Both the position numbers and the translations under genes were made by a program. Source: a virus (Duplodnaviria; Heunggongvirae; Uroviricota; Caudoviricetes). Taken from it: a stretch of 35,266 nucleotides of DNA. Of the stretch, positions 11,461 through 35,266 are shown in pieces. The notes under the pieces were generated by a model, which had not been told where the DNA came from, searched no databases, and worked only from the letters and a program-made list of their open reading frames with translations. The DNA lies in IMG/VR virus record IMGVR_UViG_2645727970_000011, positions 1 to 35,266 of that record. The stretch is one strand, 5' to 3'. The first letter of the stretch is position 1; the number at the start of each line of letters is the position of its first letter.

Positions 11461-11645
11461 ACGCCACAATTCAAACGATACCAGAGCTTCTTATCCAGAC
11501 ACGAGGCAATCAGACCGAAGTGGCGAGGATGCTTTCCTGCGCAAGAGGAACAGTGCTCAAGTACAACCGAGACAGCAAAGGCGAGCGTCATGTAATAGTT
11601 AACGGCGTCCTGATGGTCAAACAGGGCAAGAGGGGAAGACGATGA
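11457..11645 (+). CDS. ninH: NinH-like protein (62 aa)
   Basis: Motif GNQTEVARMLSCARGTVLKY and VNGVLMV resemble lambda NinH from memory. Confidence 0.7.
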   Translation: MNATIQTIPELLIQTRGNQTEVARMLSCARGTVLKYNRDSKGERHVIVNGVLMVKQGKRGRR

Positions 11646-12160
11646 GCATAAGAGAACTAAACCTCACCAAAGAGCAGCACGAGTGGCTGAATGGCTGGCT
11701 TGAACTGTGGGGCGCATGGGTTTATTCAGGTCGTCTGGAAAAGCGCATGAGCAGCGTAATAGCGAAGTTCATGGAGAGCGTAGAGCCTGGAAGAATTATG
11801 ACAAGGCCAATGTGTAATGATGATGATGGAATGTTGATTTCTCAGGTCGTCGATTCCGTCATGTACATTGACAAGAAAGCCTTTGGCATCCTCCTCAGCT
11901 ACTACGCTCATGGTTCATCTAAGCGAGCAATTGCATCCTACTATCACGCGACTGCAAAGCCACGCAAGATGTGTGGACGTGGTGGCGAGGGATGGAGAAA
12001 ACCTTCACTGGCAACCTGTAGAAACGAAATTGACGACATCCTGAAAGCGTCGTTATTTGTTTTATACCAGCCAATGCAAAATGCTTTCAAAATGCGTAAA
12101 CGTGTTGAGAAAGTTAAGCATGTTGCTGTTAAAAGCCTTGACATGCAATTAGCCATTTAG
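11642..12160 (+). CDS. Q: Late-gene antiterminator Q (phage 82/21-type family), 172 aa
   Basis: Last gene of the nin region, immediately upstream of a TTGACA/CATAAT promoter and a short leader terminator; Cys-rich segment; family assignment by position and recollection. Confidence 0.65.
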   Translation: MSIRELNLTKEQHEWLNGWLELWGAWVYSGRLEKRMSSVIAKFMESVEPGRIMTRPMCNDDDGMLISQVVDSVMYIDKKAFGILLSYYAHGSSKRAIASYYHATAKPRKMCGRGGEGWRKPSLATCRNEIDDILKASLFVLYQPMQNAFKMRKRVEKVKHVAVKSLDMQLAI

Positions 12161-12223: not shown

Positions 12224-12298
12224 GGGTCAGTCGTATAAAGGTCATTACGGAAGGCTGTTAACCTTCTTATCGTGGTTCGAGTCCACGCTGTCCCGCCA
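12224..12298 (+). tRNA. tRNA-Asn (anticodon GUU), 75 nt including encoded CCA
   Basis: Hand-folded cloverleaf: acceptor GGGTCAG / CTGTCCC (one U-U mismatch), anticodon stem GAAGG / CCTTC with loop CTGTTAA, T-arm CGTGG-TTCGAGT-CCACG, discriminator G and CCA. Not run through tRNAscan. Confidence 0.6.
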
Positions 12299-12303
12299 AA
12301 CAT

Positions 12304-12379
12304 GCTGGTTTAGCTCCAATGGTAGAGCGGTCGCCTTGTAAGCGAATGGGTAGCGGTTCAAGTCCGTTAACCAGCACCA
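12304..12379 (+). tRNA. tRNA-Thr (anticodon UGU), 76 nt including encoded CCA
   Basis: Hand-folded cloverleaf: perfect 7-bp acceptor GCTGGTT / AACCAGC, D-arm GCTC-CAATGGTA-GAGC, anticodon loop CTTGTAA, T-arm AGCGG-TTCAAGT-CCGTT, discriminator A and CCA. Confidence 0.65.
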
Positions 12380-12621: not shown

Positions 12622-12945
12622 ATGAAGATGCCAGAAAAACATGACCTGTTAGCCGCCATTCTCGCGGCAAAGGAACAAGGCATCGGGGCAATCCTTGCGT
12701 TTGCAATGGCGTACCTTCGCGGCAGATATAATGGCGGTGCGTTTACAAAAACAGTAATCGACGCAACGATGTGCGCCATTATCGCCTGGTTCATTCGTGA
12801 CCTTCTCGACTTCGCCGGACTAAGTAGCAATCTCGCTTATATAACGAGCGTGTTCATCGGCTACATCGGTACTGACTCGATTGGTTCGCTTATCAAACGC
12901 TTCGCTGCTAAAAAAGCCGGAGTAGAAGATGGTGGAAATCAATAA
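12622..12945 (+). CDS. S: Holin S, lambda class I, with dual-start motif (107/105 aa)
   Basis: Translation essentially identical to lambda S as I recall it ([39 protein letters not shown]...); Met1-Lys2-Met3 dual start at 12622 and 12628. Confidence 0.95.
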
Positions 12946-13405
12946 TCAACGTAAGGCGTTCCTCGATATGCTGGCGTGGTCAGAGGGAACTGATAACGGA
13001 CGTCAAAAAACCAGAAATCATGGTTATGACGTCATTGTTGGCGGAGAGCTATTCACTGATTACTCCGATCACCCTCGCAAACTTGTCACGCTAAACCCCA
13101 AACTCAAATCAACAGCGGCCGGACGTTACCAGCTTCTTTCCCGTTGGTGGGATGCCTATCGTAAGCAGCTTGGCCTGAAAGACTTCTCTCCGAAAAGCCA
13201 GGACGCTGTTGCACTGCAGCAGATTAAGGAGCGTGGCGCTTTACCGATGATTGATCGCGGTGATATCCGTCAGGCAATCGACCGTTGCAGTAATATCTGG
13301 GCTTCACTGCCGGGCGCTGGTTATGGTCAGTTCGAGCATAAGGCTGACAGCCTGATTGCAAAATTCAAAGAAGCAGGCGGAACGGTCAGAGAGATTGAGG
13401 TATGA
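12929..13405 (+). CDS. R: Endolysin R, lambda-type lytic transglycosylase (158 aa)
   Basis: [49 protein letters not shown]... matches lambda R as I recall it. Confidence 0.95.
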
Positions 13406-13839
13406 GCAGAGTAACCGCGATTATCTCCGCTCTGGTTATCTGCATCATCGTCTGCCTGTCATGGGCTGTTAATCATTACCGCGATAACGCCATCGCCTAC
13501 AAAGAGCAGCGCGACAAAGCCGCATCCACTATCGCTGATATGCAGAAGCGTCAACGTGACGTAGCAGAACTCGACGCCAGATATACAAAGGAGCTTGCTG
13601 ATGCTAACGCGACTATCGAAAGCCTCCGTGCTGATGTTTCTGCTGGTCGTAAGCGCCTGCAAGTCGCCGCCACCTGTGCAAAGTCAACGACCGGAGCCAG
13701 CGGCATGGGCGATGAAGAAAGCCCAGGACTTACAGCAGATGCTGAACTCAATTATTACCGTCTCCGAAGTGGAATCGACAAGATAACCGCGCAGGTTAAC
13801 TACCTGCAGGAATACATCAGGACGCAATGCCTGAAATAA
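13402..13839 (+). CDS. Rz: Rz i-spanin (145 aa)
   Basis: N-terminus [31 protein letters not shown] matches lambda Rz as I recall it; N-terminal transmembrane helix plus coiled-coil periplasmic domain. Confidence 0.9.
13601..13786 (+). CDS. Rz1: Rz1 o-spanin lipoprotein embedded in the +1 frame of Rz (61 aa)
   Basis: ATG at 13601 with AAGGAG SD 7 nt upstream (track ORF starts at an upstream TTG); lipobox LVVSAC; proline-rich mature region. Confidence 0.8.
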
Positions 13840-25806: not shown

Positions 25807-27138
25807 ATGGCTACGTGGCAACAGGGTATTAATTCTGGTGGTTTTCTGGCTGGCATCGGTACGCAAAATGAGAATGCGCCAAAGGCAAGCGACATTAACG
25901 CAACGCTTGGTCTGATCCGCGAAAACAATGAACTGGCTCGCTCAGGTGCAAATAACGTTGGCCTGACCGCGTTACGTGGTCTGGCTGGAGTTGCTGATAT
26001 TTACAATCAGGAACAGCAACAGAAAGCGATTAGTGCATTCAATAAGGTTCACGCTGATGCATGGGCTTCTGGTGATCCATCGGGACTATTTAAGTTTGCC
26101 CAGGAAAATCCAGCGTTTGTTGCACAGGCACAACAGGCGTTTTCCGGTCTTAATGAGCAGCAACGCAACGATATGGGCGATTTAGCCATGAGGGCTAACG
26201 TCGCTCTTTCTCAGGGACCGGAAGCCTACAGTAAATTCATTACTGACAACAAGGACAGGTTAAATCGCGTTGGTGCTAATGCTGACTGGATGATTCAGAC
26301 AGGTATCCAGAATCCAGAGCAGCTATCACACATGCTGACTACTATGACGCTAGGGGCTGTTGGTCCGGATAAAATGCTGGATTATCAGGATAAGATGGTT
26401 GGTCGCCAACTTGAGAAAGGGAGATTGGATGAAAGCATCCGTCAGGCTGACATGGAGAACGCGAGAGGATGGGCAAATATCCAAAACGCTCAACTAGACA
26501 GGGCTCAGCGGGCACAAATGCATAATGATAACGTAGCCCTGAAGTTGCAGGAATTAGGGATGAAACAACAGGAAAGCGGAAAGATTGACCCAAAACTTGT
26601 TCGAGATCTGAATAGTGATATTAATGGGTTCTCAAAGAATTATTCTGCAATGCGCAGTGCTTCTGACAACCTACAAGCCCTTGGGAAGCGCAACACTCCA
26701 GCCGCGCAGTTGGGAATGATTTTCAACTATATGAAATCGTTGGATCCGCAATCTGTGGTACGCGAAGGTGAGCAAGTGCAGGTAAAACGCACTGATGGAA
26801 TATTCGGCACACTTGGTAACTATGTTAGCCAATTATCTAACGGCAAGATGCTGAATAATGAGCAAGTCCAGGACTTAATCAACACCTCAAAACTGATGGC
26901 AAATACTGAAGGCGAAAAGTTTAACCAGCAAATGGATGATTATCTTTCAACTTATGGAGATTCTCTCCCCAGCGGACTAACTAAGCAATTGCAATCCAGA
27001 AAAGCCAAGCTGTATGAAGATATTCAGCAGCCTGCGCAACAACAGAGCAATAACCAACAACCGACAGATACCCAACAGCAGCAGAGTCAATCCGGATCAT
27101 ATACCTCAAAATCAGGCATTCAATTTACGGTGGAATGA
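25807..27138 (+). CDS. Ejection protein, gp20-like (443 aa)
   Basis: Synteny and size; Gln-rich C-terminus. Confidence 0.65.
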
Positions 27139-29261
27139 TGAAAGTAACTGCAAACGGAAAGACATTTACCTTCCCTGATGGTACGAGCACGGAAGATATT
27201 GGCACCGCCATTGATGAGTATTTTGCTGGTCAGGCTGTTCAGCAACAAACAGTTAATCAGGCCAATAATGAACCAGCACGTGAAGAACCATCATTGATGC
27301 AACAAGCTGGCGATTGGTTCACTGGTGGTCAAAGTGCAGGGCAAATTGCAGAACAGGCTGGTCGTGGTCTGGTAAACATACCATTTGACGTATTGCAGGG
27401 TGGCGCAAGTCTGATTAATGCAATCAGTCAGGGGCTTGGTGGGCCCAAGGTTTTGGATGATGTCTATCGTCCAGTCGATCGACCGACAGACCCTTACGCG
27501 CAAGCCGGTGAAACAATTGGTGGGTATCTCCTGCCAATTGGCACAGCGGCAAAAGCTGCTGGAGCGCCAGCAAAGCTCGCTGGAGATATCGGTTCCGCAG
27601 GAAACATGATTGCAGGTTCTCTTGCTGATGCTGCAAATCAGGAGGGCGATTTTGCACAAAATGCCGCCATTAACGGTGGTATCAATATTGGTGCTCAAGG
27701 CGTTCTTTCAGGTGTTGGGCGCGTTATTGCGCCAAGGGTTTCACAGGCTCTTGGTGGTGCAGCACTGAATTCTGCTAATGATGTTTCCAGGATGGCAAAG
27801 TCAGGTGCTGGGCGTCAGTCAATTGCCAGTCAGGCCGCTAATGTGTCCGAAGATGTAGCAAAAGCGGCTGAGTCTGCTGGAGTTGATATAAACGCATTAA
27901 CACCAGGAATGCGATCTGGAAGTCGTGGAATTGCACAAGCCGAAGGCGCATTGGCATCAACACCAGGAATTGTTCAGGATGCCCATCAGGCAGCATTTAA
28001 CGAAATATCATCAAAGTTAAGTCGAAACCTTGATGAATTTGGGGCCGCATCTGGAACGGCATCAGAAAAAAGTGCGGCTATAAAACAAAGGATTCTTCAA
28101 AATCTTGATCAGATGAAGGATGCTGAGCGCGCGGCATGGGATGACGTGCGGTCAACAATGCCAAATCAAAAAGCAAGAATGCTAAATGGTAATGCCGTTA
28201 TTCAGGCAGAGCGATCTGCTGGCATACCGCTTACTCCTGAAATGAAACAGTTTGTTCAGGCAAACAATCAAGGTGGAGTAACATTTGATGGCATGAAAGC
28301 ATGGAGAGCGAAATTTGCTGATGCGGAGCAAAAATATAAGCGTAGCGGAGAGGCAAATGCGGCAAGGAGAGCAGGGGAAATACGTCGGGCAATTACTGAT
28401 GATATGCGCACAATGGCGGAAAACGGCGGATTTTTTGATGACTGGCAAAAAGCTAATGATCTGTCTAAAGCGAGGCTATCCGCACAAGAGAGTGCAGAAT
28501 CTGTTTTTGGGCGTGATTTGGCAACAGATGCACTGATTACGAATGGAGTAAAATCTCTTCAATCATCGTCAGCTAAAGGTCTTAATGGTCCTGCTGGATT
28601 CCATTCTATGATCCGCGCGCTGCCAGAATCAGAGCGTGTTCCTGCTATATCATCAATGTTGCAGGATGCTATCTCGCATGGTGTACGTGGCGGCAAATCT
28701 GATGCAGCAGGAATTAACCATATCGCAGGGATACTTACCCCACAAAATGTAAAAGCCATTAGCAGATATTCCTCAGAACTCGGAAGAATTGCTGATGCAT
28801 ATGGCACTCTTGCAAGAGCAGCAGTGAAACCTCAGCAGTATATTGAAAGAACAGGGAGAACTGCCAATGTACTACGCGATCTGGATGCTGGTTTATCCAA
28901 CGTCACATCAACAGTGTTAAATGCAATTGCCAACTCAACATCAGGTGCCATTGTTGGTGGCGCTGGAGGGGGCATTGCAGGCGCTGCCGCGGGTGCTTTA
29001 GTTGGCGCTGGGTTAAAAGGAGCTGTATCTAAAATTGCCACCACACGTAGTGGTCGATATGCGATAGAGAAAGCTGTTCAGGAAGCCACCAAAGCAGTAA
29101 GAGCAGGCGGAAGCAAAGAAGCTTTAGCGGCGGCGGAACGCAGATTTATGGCAAATAAGGCCGCCGTAAAAGCAATACGTGATACAGTCGGAAACGAAGA
29201 GTTTCAGCGCTTAGCGAGGGCCGGTATTGTGGCATCGCTAAGCGGAATGGCACAGGAGTAA
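27135..29261 (+). CDS. Ejection protein, gp16-like (708 aa)
   Basis: Synteny and size; last gene of the rightward late operon before the leftward cargo genes. Confidence 0.65.
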
Positions 29262-29594
29262 TTAATCATCCATGGATGGATTGAGCTTATCTCGTGTTGA
29301 TGTGGCGGTTTTCCCTACATTCCTAAGCCAAGCTTTCAAATCCTTGATATTGTCATTGATTTCATGAATATCTTCTTTTTTTAATCTGTCAATATTATTT
29401 TCAATAATTTCAATGGATTGCTCAATATCAGATATAGTGAATGATAGTTTGCTCTTCTCATCTGTTATTGAGTTTTTAAGTGCTTCGTTCTCAGTCTTGA
29501 GGTCAGATATCTTTTGCTTTAAAGATGCCAGTTGGCACTGAACCACAATGAGTGCGATAGCTATCACGACAAATGTTGTATACACGCTAACCAC
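29262..29594 (-). CDS. Small membrane-anchored coiled-coil protein: N-terminal transmembrane helix then coiled coil (107-110 aa)
   Basis: Track ORF starts at GTG 29594; a second GTG at 29585 has an AAGGTGG SD 5 nt upstream; hydrophobic N-terminus YTTFVVIAIALIVVQ then heptad-rich segment; AT-rich. Confidence 0.6.
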   Translation of the reverse strand: MVSVYTTFVVIAIALIVVQCQLASLKQKISDLKTENEALKNSITDEKSKLSFTISDIEQSIEIIENNIDRLKKEDIHEINDNIKDLKAWLRNVGKTATSTRDKLNPSMDD

Positions 29595-29605
29595 CTTGGT
29601 TTTAT

Positions 29606-29854
29606 CTACTTGAGGACTAATCCGTTAAGTGCATCAAGGATTTTAGATACGTAACTACCGAAAATGTAGGTGCAAAAAGCAAAAACAACCGTGACGACAG
29701 CACCGATAGCCTTAATGGTTGTTTTCATTGTGGTGATACTAGTTTCAATACTGCTAAGCCTGGTGTCAATTGACTTCACGTCTTTTTGAATGATTTCAAT
29801 GTCACGCTTGATATAGCTGACATCAGACTCTAACTTTGCGACCCTTGATTCCAT
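29606..29854 (-). CDS. Small tail-anchored coiled-coil protein, XhlA-like architecture (82 aa)
   Basis: ATG at 29854 has an AAGGAGG SD 7 nt upstream, whereas the longer track ORF start at 29959 has none; coiled coil (VAKLESDVSYIKRDIEIIQKDVKSIDTRLSSIETSITTMK) followed by C-terminal transmembrane helix AIGAVVTVVFAFCTYIFGSYV. Confidence 0.6.
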   Translation of the reverse strand: MESRVAKLESDVSYIKRDIEIIQKDVKSIDTRLSSIETSITTMKTTIKAIGAVVTVVFAFCTYIFGSYVSKILDALNGLVLK

Positions 29855-29951
29855 GCCATCGCCTCCTTCGCCTCCAGACCTGTTCTTATCCTTTGTGTTC
29901 TCAGGATGGATACGAGATATGTTTTTTTCACTAATTGATGTTTCAATTATA

Positions 29952-30362
29952 TCAAGCATCTTTCACATGACTCACGGAAAAGTAGGCTTGCGCAGAATGC
30001 ACTAGAGTGTTGTCTTTGCTGATGGATACTCGAATTAAGTAATCCCCGTCAGCATCAAGTTTGCATTTATCGAAATGCATAGACATCGATGTTGCCAAGG
30101 TGTTCCTGATCTCATTGTGTCCTTTTGCCTTAATCCACACGCCTTTATCACCGCTTACACTGATTTCTAACTCATTCTCGATTCTATAGAGACAAGCTGA
30201 AACCCAATATGGTGTATCATGAATTAAACCGAGAAAGTGAACCTGAAAATCAAGGTCAGTAGTCACAGGTAACTCATCTGTCTCCATGATTAACATGGGT
30301 GATTTTTCATCATTTTCAGACTTATGGTAAGGAAAAAGGAATGCTATTTTTTCAGTGTTCAT
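29952..30362 (-). CDS. Hypothetical soluble protein (136 aa), first cargo gene downstream of mnt
   Basis: ATG overlaps the mnt stop (ATGA); AT-rich; no recognised family. Confidence 0.6.
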   Translation of the reverse strand: MNTEKIAFLFPYHKSENDEKSPMLIMETDELPVTTDLDFQVHFLGLIHDTPYWVSACLYRIENELEISVSGDKGVWIKAKGHNEIRNTLATSMSMHFDKCKLDADGDYLIRVSISKDNTLVHSAQAYFSVSHVKDA

Positions 30363-30601
30363 TTCCCATCCCTTAAACGTTTAAGTACATTGATGGTTAC
30401 ATCAAGAGCCTCTTGCTCTGACTTTGCCAGTTGCTGACTGCTTGATGGTATAACCTGCTCTTTATGCATTTTTATCCACAACTGGATAGCAGCAATAATC
30501 TCAGCATTGATAGAGCGTCGATTAGTGGCAGCAATATGCGTAAGTTGCTGTTTTATCTCATCTGGCATTCTTACGTTGAATTGCGGATCATTTCTAGCCA
30601 C
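30359..30601 (-). CDS. mnt: Mnt-like ribbon-helix-helix repressor (80 aa)
   Basis: GTG start with AGGAG SD 6 nt upstream; N-terminus MARNDPQFNVRMPDEIKQQL ... NRRSINAEIIAAIQ resembles P22 Mnt as I recall it; divergent from arc. Confidence 0.75.
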   Translation of the reverse strand: MARNDPQFNVRMPDEIKQQLTHIAATNRRSINAEIIAAIQLWIKMHKEQVIPSSSQQLAKSEQEALDVTINVLKRLRDGK

Positions 30602-30694
30602 GTCATTCTCCTTTTATTTATTGACATGCTAGAACGGTAGTAGTACGCTTTCAATAGTAGTACGGTGCTATCATTTAATGAAATGGAGTTGAAT
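30602..30694. promoter_or_regulatory. immI control region: Pant-like promoter with Arc-operator-like sequence and tandem direct repeats
   Basis: TTGACA (30621..30626) followed by ATGCTAGAAC, resembling the P22 Pant -35 and Oarc left half; direct repeat TAGTAGTACG at 30641..30650 and 30658..30667; sequence ATAGTAGTACGGTGCTATCAT at 30654..30674; GGAG SD before arc. Confidence 0.55.
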
Positions 30695-30856
30695 ATGCAA
30701 GGTGCAAGAAAAATGCCGCAGTTCAATTTGCGGTGGCCTAAAGAAGTATTGGATTTGGTACGCAAGGTGGCGGAAGAGAATGGTAGGTCTGTTAATTCTG
30801 AGATTTATCAGCGAGTAATGGAAAGCTTTAAGAAGGAAGGGCGCATTGGTGCGTAA
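30695..30856 (+). CDS. arc: Arc repressor (53 aa)
   Basis: [53 protein letters not shown] is near-identical to P22 Arc as I recall it; ATG at 30695 (track ORF starts at an upstream GTG). Confidence 0.9.
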
Positions 30857-30924
30857 AGTTGAAGCCCCAACTGCGGGAACAGTCAGGGCTTCGGTATCAA
30901 CAAATCGGATTAGGAAATATTGAC

Positions 30925-31803
30925 ATGAAAAGTATAGCAAAGGCACAAAACGATTTCACCATCTTCAAATTCGGCGACAGTGAAATCCGCGTCATCAACA
31001 AATGCGGTGAGCCGTGGTTTGTAGCAAAAGATGTTTGTGATGCTTTAACCCTGACTAACTCACGCAAGGCGCTTACTGCACTTGATGACGATGAAAAGGG
31101 AGTAACTTTAAGTTACACCCTTGGTGGTGAGCAGAATCTAAGCATTGTTAGCGAATCAGGTATGTATACATTGGTTCTGCGCTGCCGCGATGCTGTCAAT
31201 AAAGGTTCATTACCGCACAAATTCCGCAAGTGGGTAACAGCAGAAGTTCTGCCTTCAATTCGCAAACATGGCGAGTATGTGAAAGGCAAGAAAACCACTG
31301 TTGAGGAAAGAACACCGCTACGAGATGCAGTAAACATGCTGGTAGGAAAGAAAGGACTTCGCTATGACGATGCATACAATATGGTTCATCAGCGTTTTGG
31401 TATTGACAGCATTGATGAACTTTCAATTGAACAAATCCCGCTGGCCGTAGAGTACATCCACAGGGTAGTGCTTGAAGGTGAATTCATCGGAAAACAAGAG
31501 AAGAAAACCAACGAGCTTTCTGCAAAAGAAGCAAACAGTCTTGTATGGTTATGGGATTATGCCAACCGCTCACAGGCATTATTCCGCGAACTGTATCCGG
31601 CATTAAAACAAATTCAATCGAACTATTCCGGCAGATGCTACGACTATGGTCATGAGTTCTCGTATGTTATCGGAATGGCGAGAGACGTTTTAATCAATCA
31701 CACACGAGATGTTGATATCAATGAGCCAGACGGACCAACGAATCTTTCCGCATGGATGAGACTTAAGAATAAAGAATTACCTCCTTCAGTACATAACTAC
31801 TGA
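30925..31803 (+). CDS. ant: Antirepressor Ant with Bro-N/AntA-type N-terminal domain (~292 aa)
   Basis: ATG at 30925 with AGGA SD (track ORF starts at TTG 30859); N-terminal [30 protein letters not shown] is a Bro-N/AntA-type signature; position after arc as in P22. Confidence 0.75.
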
Positions 31804-31821
31804 CAGATAACCAACGCAACG

Positions 31822-31846
31822 ACCCAGCTTCGGCTGGGTTTTTTTA
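31822..31846 (+). terminator. Rho-independent terminator between ant and the tailspike gene
   Basis: 7-bp stem acccagc / gctgggt with ttcg loop, followed by a run of six T. Confidence 0.8.
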
Positions 31847-31903
31847 TGCCCAAAATTCACCGTAGCCATGCTGCGGCGATTCCTTGTATCTGGAGCAAAT
31901 TAA

Positions 31904-34033
31904 ATGACAGACATTACAGCCAATGTGATCGTATCAATGCCTTCGCAACTCTTCACTATGGCACGTTCTTTTAAAGCCGTAGCCAATGGTAAAATTTATA
32001 TCGGAAAAATTGACACTGATCCGGTAAATCCTGAAAACCGGATTCAGGTTTATGTGGAGAACGAAGATGGTTCTCACGTTCCTGTTTCGCAACCAATCAT
32101 CATTAACGCTGCCGGATATCCGGTATATAACGGACAGATTGCCAAATTCGTTACCGTGCAAGGCCATTCTATGGCTGTTTATGATGCATATGGTGCGCAG
32201 CAGTTTTATTTTCCTAATGTGTTGAAGTATGATCCTGATCAGTTTAGTTTGAAGCTATCCATGCCTGATGGGGCAGGTGAAATTGGATATCAATATAGAA
32301 ATAATGTTACATCTTCTTACCGAAGAGTAAACGACAAGCTTGATGAGCATGTCAGTATTCTGGATTTTCATAGAAATGTTGATGGTGGGTTAATCCTTCC
32401 TGCACAGAATGTTGATAGTAGACCATTCTTTGAGCGAGCACTTGTATACATTGAATCAATAGGCGGTGGCACTATTTATGTACCGGCTGGAAAATACTAT
32501 TTAAATTCATACAGTGAAATAGGGATCATAGGCACTGTCTTTAATGCAATATTGCCACTTTGCGATAATGTTAAAATTTTATTGGATACAGCGGCAGAAA
32601 TAGTTGTTGGTACTTTTTTTGATGACAAGCCTTTCCAGTTGTTTTTTGGTTCTTCGCCTTTGAAACCAAATCTTGTAGACGCTGTAAATAATGTTGTCAT
32701 AGAAGGTGGTACAATTAGCTTTAGTGGTTATAGCAGTATGATGAGAACAGCACCACTAAACAGAATTGCATTGCAGACAGGAAATATAGATAATCTTCGC
32801 ATATCAAATGTTACCTTTCGTGATGGTGACTTAACAAACGCTTTAGCGATAGGATACAAAAATCTAGGCAAATATGCAGTTGTTGAGAATTGCAACTTTA
32901 TTGACCTTATTCAGAACGGAATGAATAACGATCATAGTAGTATCTACCTTAATGCGTCATACTCTACAATTAATAATTGCAACTTTATTTCCACGATAGA
33001 TAAAGGAAGGAAGATCGCTTGTGCTGTTGAGTTGCATAAATCTTTCAATAGTTGGATTGGTGGTAATGTTGATGGCTATACACGTGGTGCTTTTATAAAC
33101 GCTATTGATACTGAATCATCTCTTGTAGAAAACACCAGAATTGAATCAGTTACCGCTAGAATACTACACCAGTTTGTAGCGTACTCGTTCGGTTCTAATG
33201 GGGTTATAAGAAATAGTCTTGTTTCAGGAAATAATGTAACAACTCTTGCGAGAAGTTCATCCGATACAGATCCTTCAGAATTTGGACCTTGCAGTCTCTG
33301 CGGTTGGGTGTCATATGGTAGTTTTGCAAATGCAGAAGGCCTAAATATCGTAGTTGAAAATAATACATACATTGTTGATGAATCAGTACAAGATTCATAT
33401 AGTTGCGTATTTTATGCAATCGCAAATGTTTCAGGTGTTACTGTTCGTAGAAACAGTGTTGGAGCGAGAACTTTTTTCTACAACCCAACCCCATCACTAA
33501 ATCTTTACAATTGCCATTTTTATGAAAACAGGTTTGAGGAATCGTATGTACAGAGCGGTTCAGAAAGATTTTTATATGATCTTAACTGTAATCGTATTTC
33601 TCAAAGCACTTTCGAAGCATTTGTTCCAATAAAAACAACTGCACTGACAGGAGTTATGAGGATTGACCCATCTACGCTCGGTCCGCAGAATCGTTTTGTT
33701 GTCGATACTCAGAATACAGATAATATTGAACACCCATTTATTACAAATTTGCCAGGTTTGCTCGGGCAGGATGGTACAACTTACTCATATCCGCAAAAAT
33801 GCGATGTCAACATCGGAGTTGGTTCTACACCTGTCCTATCTGTGATAAGTCCGGAAATAAGCACTGTAGACAGAGGACAGATTCTTAACAACGCGAACCT
33901 TCCATCTGGTTATGTCGCTCCGTCGTCGTTAATGAAGTACGATTCTACGCTTACAGGAGCTGGTGTCACAGTATCAGGGACGCCATCCGGTAATTATCAT
34001 GACGTGAGGATTCTACTGATAAGAGAACGTTAG
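31904..34033 (+). CDS. Tailspike: P22/HK620-type head-binding N-terminal domain plus divergent receptor-binding domain (709 aa)
   Basis: N-terminal ~115 aa ([64 protein letters not shown]...VLKYDPDQF) match the conserved tailspike head-binding domain from memory; the remainder is AT-rich and unrelated to the P22 sequence I recall. Confidence 0.85.
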
Positions 34034-34108
34034 ATAGGTCTTGCGCAGGGACGCGCAAATCATTCGGGATTGCAAGGCTTTGTGCTCTTCGATAGTGGTT
34101 AAGGTGGT

Positions 34109-35266
34109 TCACTCCACCTTCTCATCAAGCCAATCCGCCCACCACTGCATCATTTCTCTGCGCTTATCGAGATACTGAGCATGGTTGTAAATACCGCGCA
34201 CAGATCCGCCGTTGGCATGTGCCAGTTGCACTTCAATAGCGTCAGCAGGCCATTCGTGCTCGTTCATAATTGTGCTGAATTCATGCCTGAATCCGTGACC
34301 GCTTTCCAGACCCTCATAGCCGATTTGTTTGATCACAAGCAATACCGCGTTCTCGCAGATTGGCTTCTTCTTATCGTTGCGCCCGGCAAAAACAAACTCT
34401 GAGACTGGTTTGGTGATTGAGCTTAGCGTAGTGAGAAGTTCAACCACCTGGTCTGACATCGGGACCACATGAATTTTGCGTCCCTTCATCACACTGGCGT
34501 CGATGGTGATAATCCTGTTTTCAAAATCGACGTTCTTCCATAGCATGGAACGAAGCTCTTTCGTTCTTAGGGCAGTGTAGCGTAAAACTTTGGTCGCAAT
34601 GAGCGATACGATACTTCCTGAAAATGTTGCCAGTGCTTTGTTGAATGCAGGGATCTGGTCTGCAGGAAGAAACGGGAAGTTCTTCTTGCGGTATCCCTTC
34701 ATGGCGTCAGCAAGGTCAGGTGCCGGGTTATATTTAGCCCTACCAGTGACAATAGCGTAACGGAAAACCTCGCCGCATCTTCTGCGTGCTTTGTTGGCTC
34801 GCTCCATTGCGCCGCGATCTTCAAATCTGCGGATTACTTCCAGCAGTTGCATCGGCTCAATATCCTGAATTTCAAGACCGCCGATGATGGGTAAAATGTC
34901 GTCATCAAACATTTTGGCAAGTTCAGTTGCATAGCCTACTGACCAGACTTGCTTCTTGTGCTCGTACCATTCCTTGTAAATCGCACTAAAGGAATTGTTG
35001 TTAGACGAAGCCTTTTTCGCTTTTACCGGATCGATGCCAACCGAGATGTCTTTCCTCGCAGTCCATGCTTTATCCCTTGCCTCCTGCAAAGTCATAAGCG
35101 GATATTTTCCGACGGTCAGGATTTTCTCCTTACCGTCAATCTTGTAGCGAAGCTGCCATACCTTTTTCCCTGATACAGGGACATAAAGGTACAGGCCATT
35201 ACCATCGAGAAGGCGGTATGGTTTTTCTTTCGGCTTTGCTGCTTCAATCTGCTTAACGGTGAGCAT
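34109..35266 (-). CDS. int: Tyrosine integrase, P4-type (385 aa)
   Basis: ATG is exactly the last three bases of the window; N-terminal arm-binding-like domain (LTVKQIEAAKPKEKPYRLLDGNGLYLYV) and C-terminal catalytic region with conserved R, H-x-x-R and terminal Y (GIYNHAQY). Confidence 0.85.
   Translation of the reverse strand: MLTVKQIEAAKPKEKPYRLLDGNGLYLYVPVSGKKVWQLRYKIDGKEKILTVGKYPLMTLQEARDKAWTARKDISVGIDPVKAKKASSNNNSFSAIYKEWYEHKKQVWSVGYATELAKMFDDDILPIIGGLEIQDIEPMQLLEVIRRFEDRGAMERANKARRRCGEVFRYAIVTGRAKYNPAPDLADAMKGYRKKNFPFLPADQIPAFNKALATFSGSIVSLIATKVLRYTALRTKELRSMLWKNVDFENRIITIDASVMKGRKIHVVPMSDQVVELLTTLSSITKPVSEFVFAGRNDKKKPICENAVLLVIKQIGYEGLESGHGFRHEFSTIMNEHEWPADAIEVQLAHANGGSVRGIYNHAQYLDKRREMMQWWADWLDEKVE

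Follow-up and report, generated by a model that had tools for sequence, protein, structure and literature searches.

hkcB, a catalogued gene for a predicted membrane-anchored coiled-coil protein, ends the mnt operon of a P22-like phage and meets gene 16 stop to stop

The immI region and the hkcB gene

The window, a stretch of 35,266 nucleotides, represents a P22-like phage whose immI region (mnt, arc, sar and ant) is intact. The leftward operon of this region runs from mnt through genes for proteins of 136 and 117 aa to hkcB, which is the fourth and last gene. Successive genes overlap by 4 and 8 nt before a 20-nt gap that holds the Shine-Dalgarno sequence of hkcB, and no terminator-like site lies on the minus strand from 30601 to 29262. 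The sequence-only reading had assigned the flagged gene to the immunity region, and it does end the mnt operon of immI. The operon opens with an Arc-family repressor (30359-30601, minus strand; PF03869, E = 4.8e-13) that is 48% identical to the N-terminus of P22 Mnt. The 136-aa protein (29952-30362, minus strand) belongs to phrog_5893; Pfam, NCBIfam and PADLOC returned no match to it and its AlphaFold2 model was unusable (pLDDT 47). Immediately upstream of hkcB lies the gene of the 117-aa protein (29606-29959, minus strand), an XhlA-like, tail-anchored coiled-coil protein with a C-terminal transmembrane segment at residues 84-100. It matches phrog_6136 (E = 1e-37), phrog_6324 (E = 5.6e-9) and, below the Pfam threshold, PF10779 (E = 2.4e-5; 24.8 bits against a cut-off of 34.7). 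The rest of the control region (30602-30923) contains Pant/Pmnt, which aligns with P22 and epsilon34, followed by arc (30665-30856, plus strand; PF03869, E = 1.4e-30) and the antisense RNA sar (30857-30923, minus strand; RF00262, 71.6 bits). Since hkcB sits in an operon led by mnt, analogy with Pmnt of P22 suggests that it is made in the lysogen. At one distant locus (L026), the moron consists of mnt and hkcB alone.

The hkcB coding sequence occupies 29262-29585 on the minus strand and encodes 107 aa. An in-frame GTG further upstream at 29594 is an alternative start, giving 110 aa (29262-29594). GTG 29585 is the likelier start because an AAGGTGG Shine-Dalgarno sequence lies 5 nt upstream, and because it is the annotated start of the homologues in E. 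coli 266917_2, epsilon34 and CUS-3. The PHROG 5962 profile matches the product with E = 2.6e-57, residues 2-110 aligning to positions 1-109 of 109. HkcB is 91-97% identical to epsilon34 gp14, CUS-3 HkcB and an E. coli prophage copy, and 50% identical to HK620 HkcB. Comparison with diverged homologues gave dN/dS values of 0.22-0.35, a range indicating purifying selection on the HkcB protein. It is near certain that the flagged reading frame is a genuine hkcB-family gene, and we hold its architecture and its separation from the spanins, both discussed below, with the same confidence.

The family is already catalogued. Its members are annotated as hypothetical proteins in HK620, CUS-3 and epsilon34 (PHROG 5962; gp14 in epsilon34), and the family carries no assigned function (PMC2629481). 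The epsilon34 genome paper was the only literature found on hkcB. Of 5426 complete E. coli genomes, 274 (about 5%) contain a match. When 1.84 billion representatives were searched exhaustively with an HMM, only five matched at E < 1e-10, and a scan of representative genomes yielded no confirmed loci. The family is small, and its members come only from enterobacterial phages and prophages of the P22-like (Lederbergvirus) type. The window gene resembles hkcB of HK620 and CUS-3 and gene 14 of epsilon34 in family (50-92% amino-acid identity), length, position, orientation and junction with gene 16. The upstream genes differ, with divergent genes or other cassettes preceding hkcB elsewhere. The flagged feature is mostly accounted for as a catalogued hypothetical gene in the "ant moron", a region of P22-like phages that is well described and changes fast.

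The junction with gene 16 and its RNA structures

Gene 16, the convergent partner of hkcB, encodes the ejection (DNA transfer) protein (27135-29261, plus strand; phrog_770, E = 1.6e-232). Its product shares 94-99% identity with the gp16 proteins of every close locus that carries hkcB, and 73% with that of HK620. The two genes meet in TAATTA (29259-29264), where the gene 16 stop (TAA, 29259-29261, plus strand) abuts the hkcB stop (TAA, 29262-29264, minus strand) with zero intergenic bases, as had been read from the sequence. The same zero-base junction is present at 26 of 26 related loci, including HK620. Distant hkcB homologues are separated from gene 16 by 3-4 nt, and by 19 nt at a single locus (L083). 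Among 90 loci sharing the gp16 C-terminal family, there are 35 further zero-gap cases. The distribution indicates an ancestral junction inherited together with the gene 16-hkcB pair. The earlier description of hkcB as the last cargo gene of a cassette does not really fit, as hkcB is the sole constant gene and always adjoins gene 16, with at least seven different architectures upstream. This constant adjacency could reflect insertion-site ancestry alone.

Terminators were sought on both strands from 27000 to 34500, and no terminator-like site was found on either strand between 28036 and 30283. An intrinsic (Rho-independent) terminator at the junction was rejected, as a GC-rich stem with a U-tract is found on neither strand. 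The earlier claim that no terminator separates the two genes thus stands as far as canonical sites are concerned. The region is nevertheless structured, with one conserved hairpin at the 3' end of gene 16 and another within the last codons of hkcB. The former is a 10-bp stem-loop in the last 54 nt of gene 16 (29208-29244) with arms CGCTTAGCGA and TCGCTAAGCG. Its RNA fold z is -3.3 on the plus strand and -3.05 on the minus strand, and -3.3 against synonymous-codon shuffles. The stem is followed by GAAUGGCA on the plus strand or CUGAAACU on the minus strand, with a U-run on neither. At the same site, L027 and L114 carry wholly different yet complementary arms, and the stems of L094, L101 and L100 are shifted. 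The stem-loop was discarded as a universal element: about half of the tested lineages show it significantly, and L089, L096, L098, L113, L115 and L026 lack it.

The hairpin on the hkcB side is small (ATCC-ATGGAT-GGAT, 29268-29281, plus strand) and overlaps the hkcB codons N-P-S-M-D. Its core, CCANGGANGG (29270-29279), occurs once in the window. Of 33 distinct sequences downstream of gene 16, 14 have a hairpin with an ANGGAN loop at +8 to +11 past the stop, and P22 has one too. It is found beside hkcB, SieA-like, lipoprotein and TM-protein genes, and across loci it falls in codon phase 0, in codon phase 1 or in non-coding spacer. The C-ANGGAN-G hairpin under the last codons of hkcB is a new detail, and it persists beside unrelated genes. 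The hkcB frame crosses the conserved hairpin and then ends exactly at the gene 16 stop. The published high-affinity RNA ligand of CsrA/RsmE is an ANGGAX hexaloop on a stem closed by a C-G pair (PMC4005645). The junction element likewise has the form C-[A-N-G-G-A-N]-G on a stem of 3-5 bp, with loops AUGGAU, ACGGAU, AAGGAA and AAGGAC. Unlike CsrA/RsmE sites over a ribosome-binding site, it follows a stop codon. We consider it a candidate CsrA/RsmE site, and as such a lead. One conceivable function would be a CsrA site that links the fate of the late mRNA, or read-through to the tailspike gene, to host physiology. P22-like phages conserve the C-ANGGAN-G hairpin irrespective of the gene that follows and of whether the hairpin itself is coding. 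Situated where gene 16 ends, it offers a small testable handle on how late transcripts are handled at the moron boundary.

The sequence-only reading had further proposed that late transcription runs antisense into the cassette and could silence it during lytic growth. The transcriptional part is well grounded in the layout, in the presence of a Q-like antiterminator (11642-12160) and in the P22 literature. Late transcripts are expected to be antisense over the cassette because the tailspike gene (31904-34033, plus strand) lies downstream of it on the same late strand. Between the cassette and the tailspike gene stands a strong intrinsic terminator after ant (31821-31840, plus strand; an 8-bp stem with 5 GC pairs, then TTTTTTT), which is the positional equivalent of the annotated ant terminators of P22 and epsilon34. 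No promoter-like site was found between this terminator and the tailspike start. During lytic growth, Q-antiterminated late transcription would cross hkcB, the two genes upstream of it and mnt in antisense, and would read through the ant terminator to the tailspike gene. Such antisense read-through is already known for P22, where PLate transcripts cross the ant moron to the tailspike gene (PMC2629481, PMC8022706).

The regulatory part of the proposal, that late transcripts silence the mnt-hkcB cassette in lytic growth and perhaps that the leftward transcript damps gene 16 in the lysogen, seems improbable to us. The conserved zero-gap convergence, the lack of a canonical terminator between gene 16 and the cassette, the obligatory passage of late transcription over the mnt-hkcB region and the two conserved RNA hairpins flanking the junction are all consistent with it. 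However, every occupant of the slot, P22 sieA included, converges on gene 16, with spacers of 2-22 nt, which makes the convergent layout a feature common to the ant moron and not one peculiar to hkcB. A convergent arrangement without a terminator is the norm of the P22-like group. The purifying selection acting on the HkcB protein also argues against a mainly regulatory role. RNA-seq reads of P22 sieA, which has the same position, rise on induction, but the methods text found for these libraries does not mention strand-specificity, and the reads speak neither for nor against silencing.

Predicted architecture of HkcB and competing functions

HkcB is a single-pass membrane protein of about 107 residues, in which an anchor at the extreme N-terminus leads into a heptad-repeat helix of about 80 residues. 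The transmembrane segment (29520-29573, minus strand; residues about 5-22) has its hydropathy maximum at VVIAIALIVVQCQLASL, with a mean Kyte-Doolittle value of 2.46. It is followed by a long amphipathic helix (29283-29519, minus strand; residues 23-101), supported by AlphaFold2 and by a 3-4-3-4 heptad pattern that extends from residue 22 to about 90 with an occupancy of 0.75-0.88. The AlphaFold2 model is one helix over residues 2-101 (mean pLDDT 87). Hydropathy, heptads and model thus agree with the N-terminal transmembrane helix and coiled coil described at the outset. From these predictions, HkcB probably oligomerises through a coiled coil that its N-terminal segment anchors in the inner membrane. 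The most conserved stretch lies near the C-terminus (W-L-x-N-V-G-x-I-A-T-S-T-R-D-K), and its WxxNVG motif is retained in the distant homologues P0015 and P0017. No lysine or arginine precedes the transmembrane segment and four follow within 15 residues. In five diverse homologues the counts are 0 before the segment and 2-4 after it, which leans towards an N-out/C-in topology by a crude count that misjudges Rz (1 versus 2).

Several other identities were considered and set aside. A lipoprotein or signal-peptide N-terminus was rejected for want of a conserved cysteine, of a lipobox and of a suitable -3 residue for signal peptidase; the transmembrane cysteine is replaced by tyrosine in most homologues. 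Searches of Pfam, PDB, NCBIfam and PADLOC with HkcB returned generic coiled-coil matches only. Among solved structures, the listed matches of a profile search of all PDB sequences were designed coiled coils and intermediate filaments. A known anti-phage defence protein was not supported either, as PADLOC gave coiled-coil noise (JetC and LmuB; E >= 3e-4, about 16 bits). A short "KIATTR" likeness between the HkcB C-terminus and gp16 was taken as chance because it does not co-vary across phage pairs.

HkcB had been called spanin-like and compared with the i-spanin Rz about 16 kb away. The distance is right (15.4-16.2 kb), the window Rz being encoded at 13402-13839 (phrog_13, E = 1.8e-72) by a gene whose +1 frame contains Rz1 with the lipobox LLVVSAC, in a set of holin, endolysin and Rz genes at 12622-13839. 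The resemblance holds for the linear layout: HkcB shares with lambda-type Rz the small size, the N-terminal transmembrane segment and the helix prone to coiled-coil formation, and Rz-like spanin PHROGs match it weakly (E = 0.002-0.02). These matches lie, however, among dozens of generic coiled-coil matches, and BLASTP between HkcB and the window Rz gives no alignment even at E <= 100. No embedded or adjacent lipoprotein reading frame could serve as an o-spanin, as the other frames of hkcB are stop-rich and have no lipobox, and gene 16 lies directly downstream. Rz proteins of the lambda type carry periplasmic cysteines for covalent dimerisation. Residues 23-107 of HkcB contain no cysteine, and the sole cysteine, C17, lies within the transmembrane segment at a position that is tyrosine in most homologues. 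The gene belongs to the mnt operon on the minus strand, opposite the late operon and 15-16 kb from the lysis genes, and its product may have the opposite membrane orientation. That HkcB is a further i-spanin of non-canonical type, or an accessory to lysis, is thus very improbable, and it is near certain that the likeness is superficial and that HkcB is no part of the lysis machinery.

A similarly remote prospect is that HkcB mimics the bitopic divisome proteins FtsB, DivIC or FtsL and modulates host division. The top Pfam family is indeed DivIC (PF04977, E = 1.2e-4, residues 7-49), FtsL (TIGR02209) matches weakly (E = 0.046), and these proteins resemble HkcB in size and layout, FtsB and DivIC having about 100 aa with an N-terminal transmembrane segment running into a leucine/isoleucine zipper. 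HkcB also has a polar Gln 16 followed by Tyr, presumably as in the transmembrane segment of E. coli FtsB. The DivIC score (22.3 bits) nevertheless stays below the gathering cut-off of 28.9, no Fts chain is among the 60 listed matches of the PDB profile search, the Gln/Tyr pair is lost in HK620 HkcB, P0015 and P0017, and the genomic context is a phage moron. An envelope or host-physiology function apart from exclusion, for instance as a membrane-active pair with the XhlA-like 117-aa protein, is unlikely but deserves more weight than the divisome or spanin readings. Tail-anchored, XhlA- or holin-like coiled-coil proteins directly precede hkcB in two unrelated cassettes, that of the window (117 aa; phrog_6136/6324) and that of the L010 type (111 aa; phrog_6324, with weaker matches to holin and hemolysin PHROGs). 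The pair is mirror-imaged, the 117-aa protein having its transmembrane segment at the C-terminus and HkcB at the N-terminus. Against such a pairing, hkcB occurs without an XhlA-like neighbour in epsilon34, HK620, L006, L008 and L026, the XhlA match of the 117-aa protein falls under the curated Pfam cut-off, and the two proteins share no similarity. Possible effects of a membrane-active pair in the lysogen include membrane stress, vesiculation, altered lysis timing or toxin-like activity.

A slot shared with SieA

In other lineages, the position next to gene 16 is occupied by genes for lipoproteins or small transmembrane or membrane proteins. In P22 it holds sieA, which converges on gene 16 across a 22-nt gap, and at one locus (L095) a SieA-like gene (phrog_7745, E = 7e-68) stands beside the same gp16 type. 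P22 SieA is an inner-membrane superinfection-exclusion protein made by the prophage (PMC10883804). Both sieA and hkcB stand first in the ant moron, converge on gene 16 and run antisense to the late genes. The proteins are unlike in sequence (phrog_7745 versus phrog_5962) and in architecture, SieA being a multi-pass protein of about 164 aa and HkcB a single transmembrane segment with a coiled coil. sieA also has its own promoter and the 22-nt spacer, whereas hkcB has zero spacer. Membership of HkcB in the SieA family was rejected on the unmatched profile and the single transmembrane segment, and tblastn with SieA found no homologue in 28 hkcB loci.

We suggest that HkcB is an accessory protein expressed by the prophage at the cell envelope, where it may plausibly interfere with DNA delivery by incoming P22-like phages bearing gp16 of the HK620/CUS-3/epsilon34 type. 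An envelope factor of the exclusion type is the best guess because SieA or other envelope proteins fill the same slot elsewhere. The explanation as a whole, namely an hkcB-family membrane coiled coil made from the mnt operon and acting at the envelope or in exclusion rather than in lysis, has in our judgement a probability of about 0.5. The specific exclusion role, for which position and architecture are the arguments, has a chance of about one in three. P22 SieA fully excludes CUS-3 even though this phage carries hkcB, which counts against an exclusion role, and the gp16 C-terminal family also stands beside many other neighbours, which counts against a specific interaction between gp16 and HkcB. 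If the coiled coil were cytoplasmic, the side to which the charges flanking the membrane segment weakly point, it would also be less obvious how HkcB could interfere directly with a conduit in the periplasm. The fuller proposal, in which HkcB would be a new single-pass coiled-coil exclusion protein for gp16 of this type and the C-ANGGAN-G hairpin an RNA element with a function in the late transcript, is more doubtful still. Should it be true, HkcB would represent a second and structurally simple block of the P22-type DNA-ejection conduit. The finding would then bear on the mechanism of SieA and on the assembly of the gp7/gp20/gp16 channel, through a gene carried by about one in twenty complete E. 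coli genomes.

The gp16 ejection conduit of the HK620/CUS-3/epsilon34 type is, at least in the case of HK620, poorly excluded by SieA. At L100 and L102 the slot is occupied by a 98-aa protein with a transmembrane segment plus coiled coil, which aligns with HkcB at an hhalign probability of 43%.

Genomic setting and the hkcB product

The window is a temperate phage genome of E. coli, P22-like (Lederbergvirus-type). CUS-3 is the closest sequenced phage overall (coverage 74%, identity 95.5%), and a prophage of E. coli 266917_2 is 99.3% identical across the region of interest. On the plus strand, the late genes include a Q-like antiterminator gene (11642-12160), the holin, endolysin and Rz genes, the last with an embedded Rz1 (12622-13839), and the virion genes followed by ejection genes 7, 20 and 16 (gene 16 at 27135-29261). 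Two tRNA genes (12224-12376, +) lie between the antiterminator and holin genes. Four tightly packed minus-strand genes are located downstream of gene 16, namely mnt (30359-30601), a 136-aa gene (29952-30362), a 117-aa gene (29606-29959) and hkcB (29262 to 29585 or 29594, with two possible starts). Beyond these genes are arc and then ant on the plus strand, the sar antisense RNA (30857-30923, minus strand, Rfam RF00262), a strong terminator after ant (31821-31840, +) and the tailspike gene (31904-34033, +). The region matches the ant moron, or immI, described for P22 and relatives (PMC2629481; PMC8022706). Junctions within the mnt operon are overlapping or 20 nt, and the operon contains no minus-strand terminator. 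The sequence-only reading correctly assigned the flagged gene to the immunity region, as hkcB is the final gene of the mnt operon and the immI control elements are intact. The Pant/Pmnt region (30602-30664) aligns with P22. The differing sequences at operator positions and a Mnt only 48% identical to that of P22 over the N-terminal DNA-binding part suggest that immI specificity differs from P22. No family is annotated for the 136-aa protein (phrog_5893), and its all-beta AlphaFold2 model (pLDDT 47) is of unusable confidence.

HkcB is conserved and crosses the membrane once, with a long helix of coiled-coil type. The reading frame has two in-frame GTG starts. The start at 29585 yields 107 aa, has an AAGGTGG Shine-Dalgarno sequence 5 nt upstream and is the one from which homologues are annotated. 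Residues ~5-22 are strongly hydrophobic, residues 22 to ~90 carry hydrophobic positions in near-continuous 3-4 spacing, and the AlphaFold2 model of the entire protein is a single helix (residues 2-101, pLDDT 87). The product matches PHROG 5962 (E 2.6e-57). Its homologues are hkcB in HK620 and CUS-3 and gene 14 in epsilon34, all with an annotation of unknown function, and a published mention of hkcB likewise gives the function as unknown (PMC2629481). The family is very small, with 14 clusters recovered from 5.8 billion clustered proteins and five matches below 1e-10 among 1.84 billion representatives searched exhaustively by HMM. The distant homologues P0015 (104 aa) and P0017 (96 aa) share this layout and, close to the C-terminus, a WxxNVG motif. 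The dN/dS of 0.22-0.35 against diverged homologues identifies hkcB as a protein-coding gene under purifying selection. The segment spanning the gene 16 3' end and hkcB is present in 274 of 5426 complete E. coli genomes (~5%).

Inheritance of the stop-to-stop junction

The gene 16 TAA (29259-29261) and the hkcB stop (29262-29264) form TAATTA with no base between them, exactly as first read from the sequence. This zero-base junction is inherited rather than a local accident. The abutment is found in all 26 loci of a set comprising the window, HK620, CUS-3, epsilon34, an E. coli prophage and 21 IMG/VR contigs, with TGATTA replacing TAATTA in one. A further 90 loci were picked solely for sharing the gp16 C-terminal domain; hkcB is full-length in 37, with a zero gap in 35 of the 37. 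Gaps in distant homologues are 3 nt (locus L026), 4 nt (L027), 0 nt (L029) and a 19-nt spacer (L083). Upstream of hkcB, at least seven architectures occur among the loci compared, and DNA similarity of the window to epsilon34, CUS-3 and SEN22 ends 18 nt upstream of the hkcB start. As the zero gap is kept while upstream genes vary, gene 16 has a constant neighbour in hkcB, with the remaining moron in flux.

Six loci (L032, L035, L036, L043, L052 and L110) have lost hkcB though gene 16 is the same, and the last ~15 codons of hkcB including the ANGGAN motif remain beside gene 16 (first ~50 nt). DNA similarity to HK620 (87%; window 29124-29383) is confined to ~137 nt at the end of gene 16 and ~120 nt at the end of hkcB. 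Over its N-terminal two-thirds, HkcB falls into two diverged allelic types, window-type and HK620-type. Both types adjoin near-identical gp16 C-termini, which indicates recombination within the conserved junction. The gp16 of CUS-3 and HK620 are 96% and 73% identical to the window gp16, respectively, values that do not fit the mere 26% identity stated between these two gp16 proteins (PMC10883804).

A terminator scan of both strands detected none within ~1 kb of the junction, in line with the initial claim. The proposal that late transcription runs antisense into the cassette has a sound premise, which is generic to the group. Scanning the window between the ant terminator and the tailspike gene revealed no promoter-like site. 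A tailspike gene lacking its own promoter-like site, together with a Q-like antiterminator, leads us to expect antisense late RNA across hkcB through mnt in every phage of the group. The one data set that bears on whether such RNA might silence the cassette is from P22, in which sieA reads rise on induction, and the methods passages of that source state no strand specificity.

Proposed roles of HkcB: lysis or exclusion

The flagged gene had been likened to a spanin, and the N-terminal transmembrane plus coiled-coil layout does hold. The true Rz lies 15.4-16.2 kb from hkcB, close to the ~16 kb proposed. Spanin identity fails on homology, partner, cysteines and strand alike, and we reject it. 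The window Rz matches Rz PHROGs at 1.8e-72 and embeds an Rz1 with lipobox, whereas HkcB yields no BLASTP alignment to this Rz even with E<=100 allowed. No lipoprotein reading frame was found embedded in or adjacent to hkcB, and the soluble part of HkcB contains no cysteine. Rz belongs to the late operon, whereas hkcB is encoded on the opposite strand. Weak Rz-like PHROG matches of HkcB (E 0.002-0.02) occur among dozens of generic coiled-coil matches. Five diverse homologues have no K/R before the transmembrane segment and 2-4 just after, a count leaning towards N-out, C-in, the reverse of Rz, though the same crude count misjudges Rz itself.

The contents of the gene position convergent on gene 16, together with the comparison to SieA of P22, make an exclusion-type, envelope-acting accessory protein the best reading of HkcB. 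The convergent gene in P22 is sieA, separated by a 22-nt spacer, and locus L095 has a SieA-like gene adjoining the same gp16 C-terminal family. Other lineages carry lipoproteins (161 aa and 78 aa), N-terminally anchored proteins (154-174 aa), two-TM miniproteins or another 98-aa TM-plus-coiled-coil protein. No SieA homologue was found in any of 28 hkcB loci. In gp16 and gp20, mutations that escape SieA lie in the C-terminal regions, and the ejection proteins of HK620 escape SieA in part (PMC10883804). As Pmnt is active in lysogens in P22 biology, HkcB should be expressed from the prophage. By analogy with P22, a Pmnt-type leftward operon would supply the protein, which would act at the envelope during lysogeny. 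We hold with high confidence that HkcB is a real membrane coiled-coil moron protein, prophage-expressed and not involved in lysis. A specific exclusion role, argued from position and architecture, has roughly one chance in three.

Nine loci (L068, L094, L096, L098, L100, L101, L105, L113 and L114) always have a small envelope protein of lipoprotein, single- or two-TM or TM-plus-coiled-coil type first after gene 16, mostly without known function. Directly upstream of hkcB, the 117-aa protein (29606-29959, -) and its counterpart at L010 3644-3979 are small tail-anchored coiled-coil proteins, XhlA-like or holin-like (phrog_6136/6324). The two cassettes are otherwise unrelated, and the arrangement suggests that membrane coiled-coil proteins of mirror-image layout recur as a pair.

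The gene, its position, moron variability and late read-through are already in the literature, which does not cover hkcB function. The finding is of interest chiefly for two leads that can be tested, a possible role of HkcB as a simple exclusion protein and a conserved ANGGAN hairpin.

Stem-loops flanking the gene 16 stop

Within the final 54 nt of gene 16, positions 29208-29217 and 29235-29244 form a perfect 10-bp stem, with folding z-scores of -3.3 and -3.05 against dinucleotide shuffles and -3.3 against synonymous-codon shuffles. At the same codons, L027 and L114 have arms CTCAGAGTTG / CAACTCTGAG, wholly unlike those of the window in sequence and yet perfectly complementary. Strong stems displaced by a few codons occur in L094/L101 and L100/L102, and several lineages lack the stem-loop. 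Neither strand has a U-tract at this site, hence the structure is not a canonical terminator. A role as 3'-end barrier to the leftward transcript is conjecture.

Of 33 distinct sequences downstream of gene 16, 14 have the decamer CCANGGANGG at 8-11 nt past the stop; the background rate is ~0.004 per 45 nt. Its single occurrence in the window (29270-29279) forms the core of a C-ANGGAN-G hairpin (29268-29281, +). The decamer is also found in the 22-nt spacer of P22, and the hairpin in P22 (L031 4322-4333), L026, L083, L094-L097, L101 and L105. Genes adjoining it include hkcB, hkcB remnants, SieA-like, lipoprotein and TM-protein genes alike. In hkcB, phase 0 gives the decamer as P-S-M in the window, HK620 and L029, phase 1 gives it as S-I-R-G in L026, and in L083 the decamer is non-coding. 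The pair flanking CC...GG alternates between T-A and G-C without mismatch across ten variants. Given the differing codon phases, the non-coding case and this covariation, the decamer looks like a nucleotide-level element, a short stem with an ANGGAN hexaloop and C-G closure. The high-affinity CsrA/RsmE ligand has been published in this same form (PMC4005645), and the shape match makes the junction hairpin a candidate ligand, as a lead only. The junction in the window has zero intergenic bases because the hkcB frame passes through the hairpin and stops exactly at gene 16.
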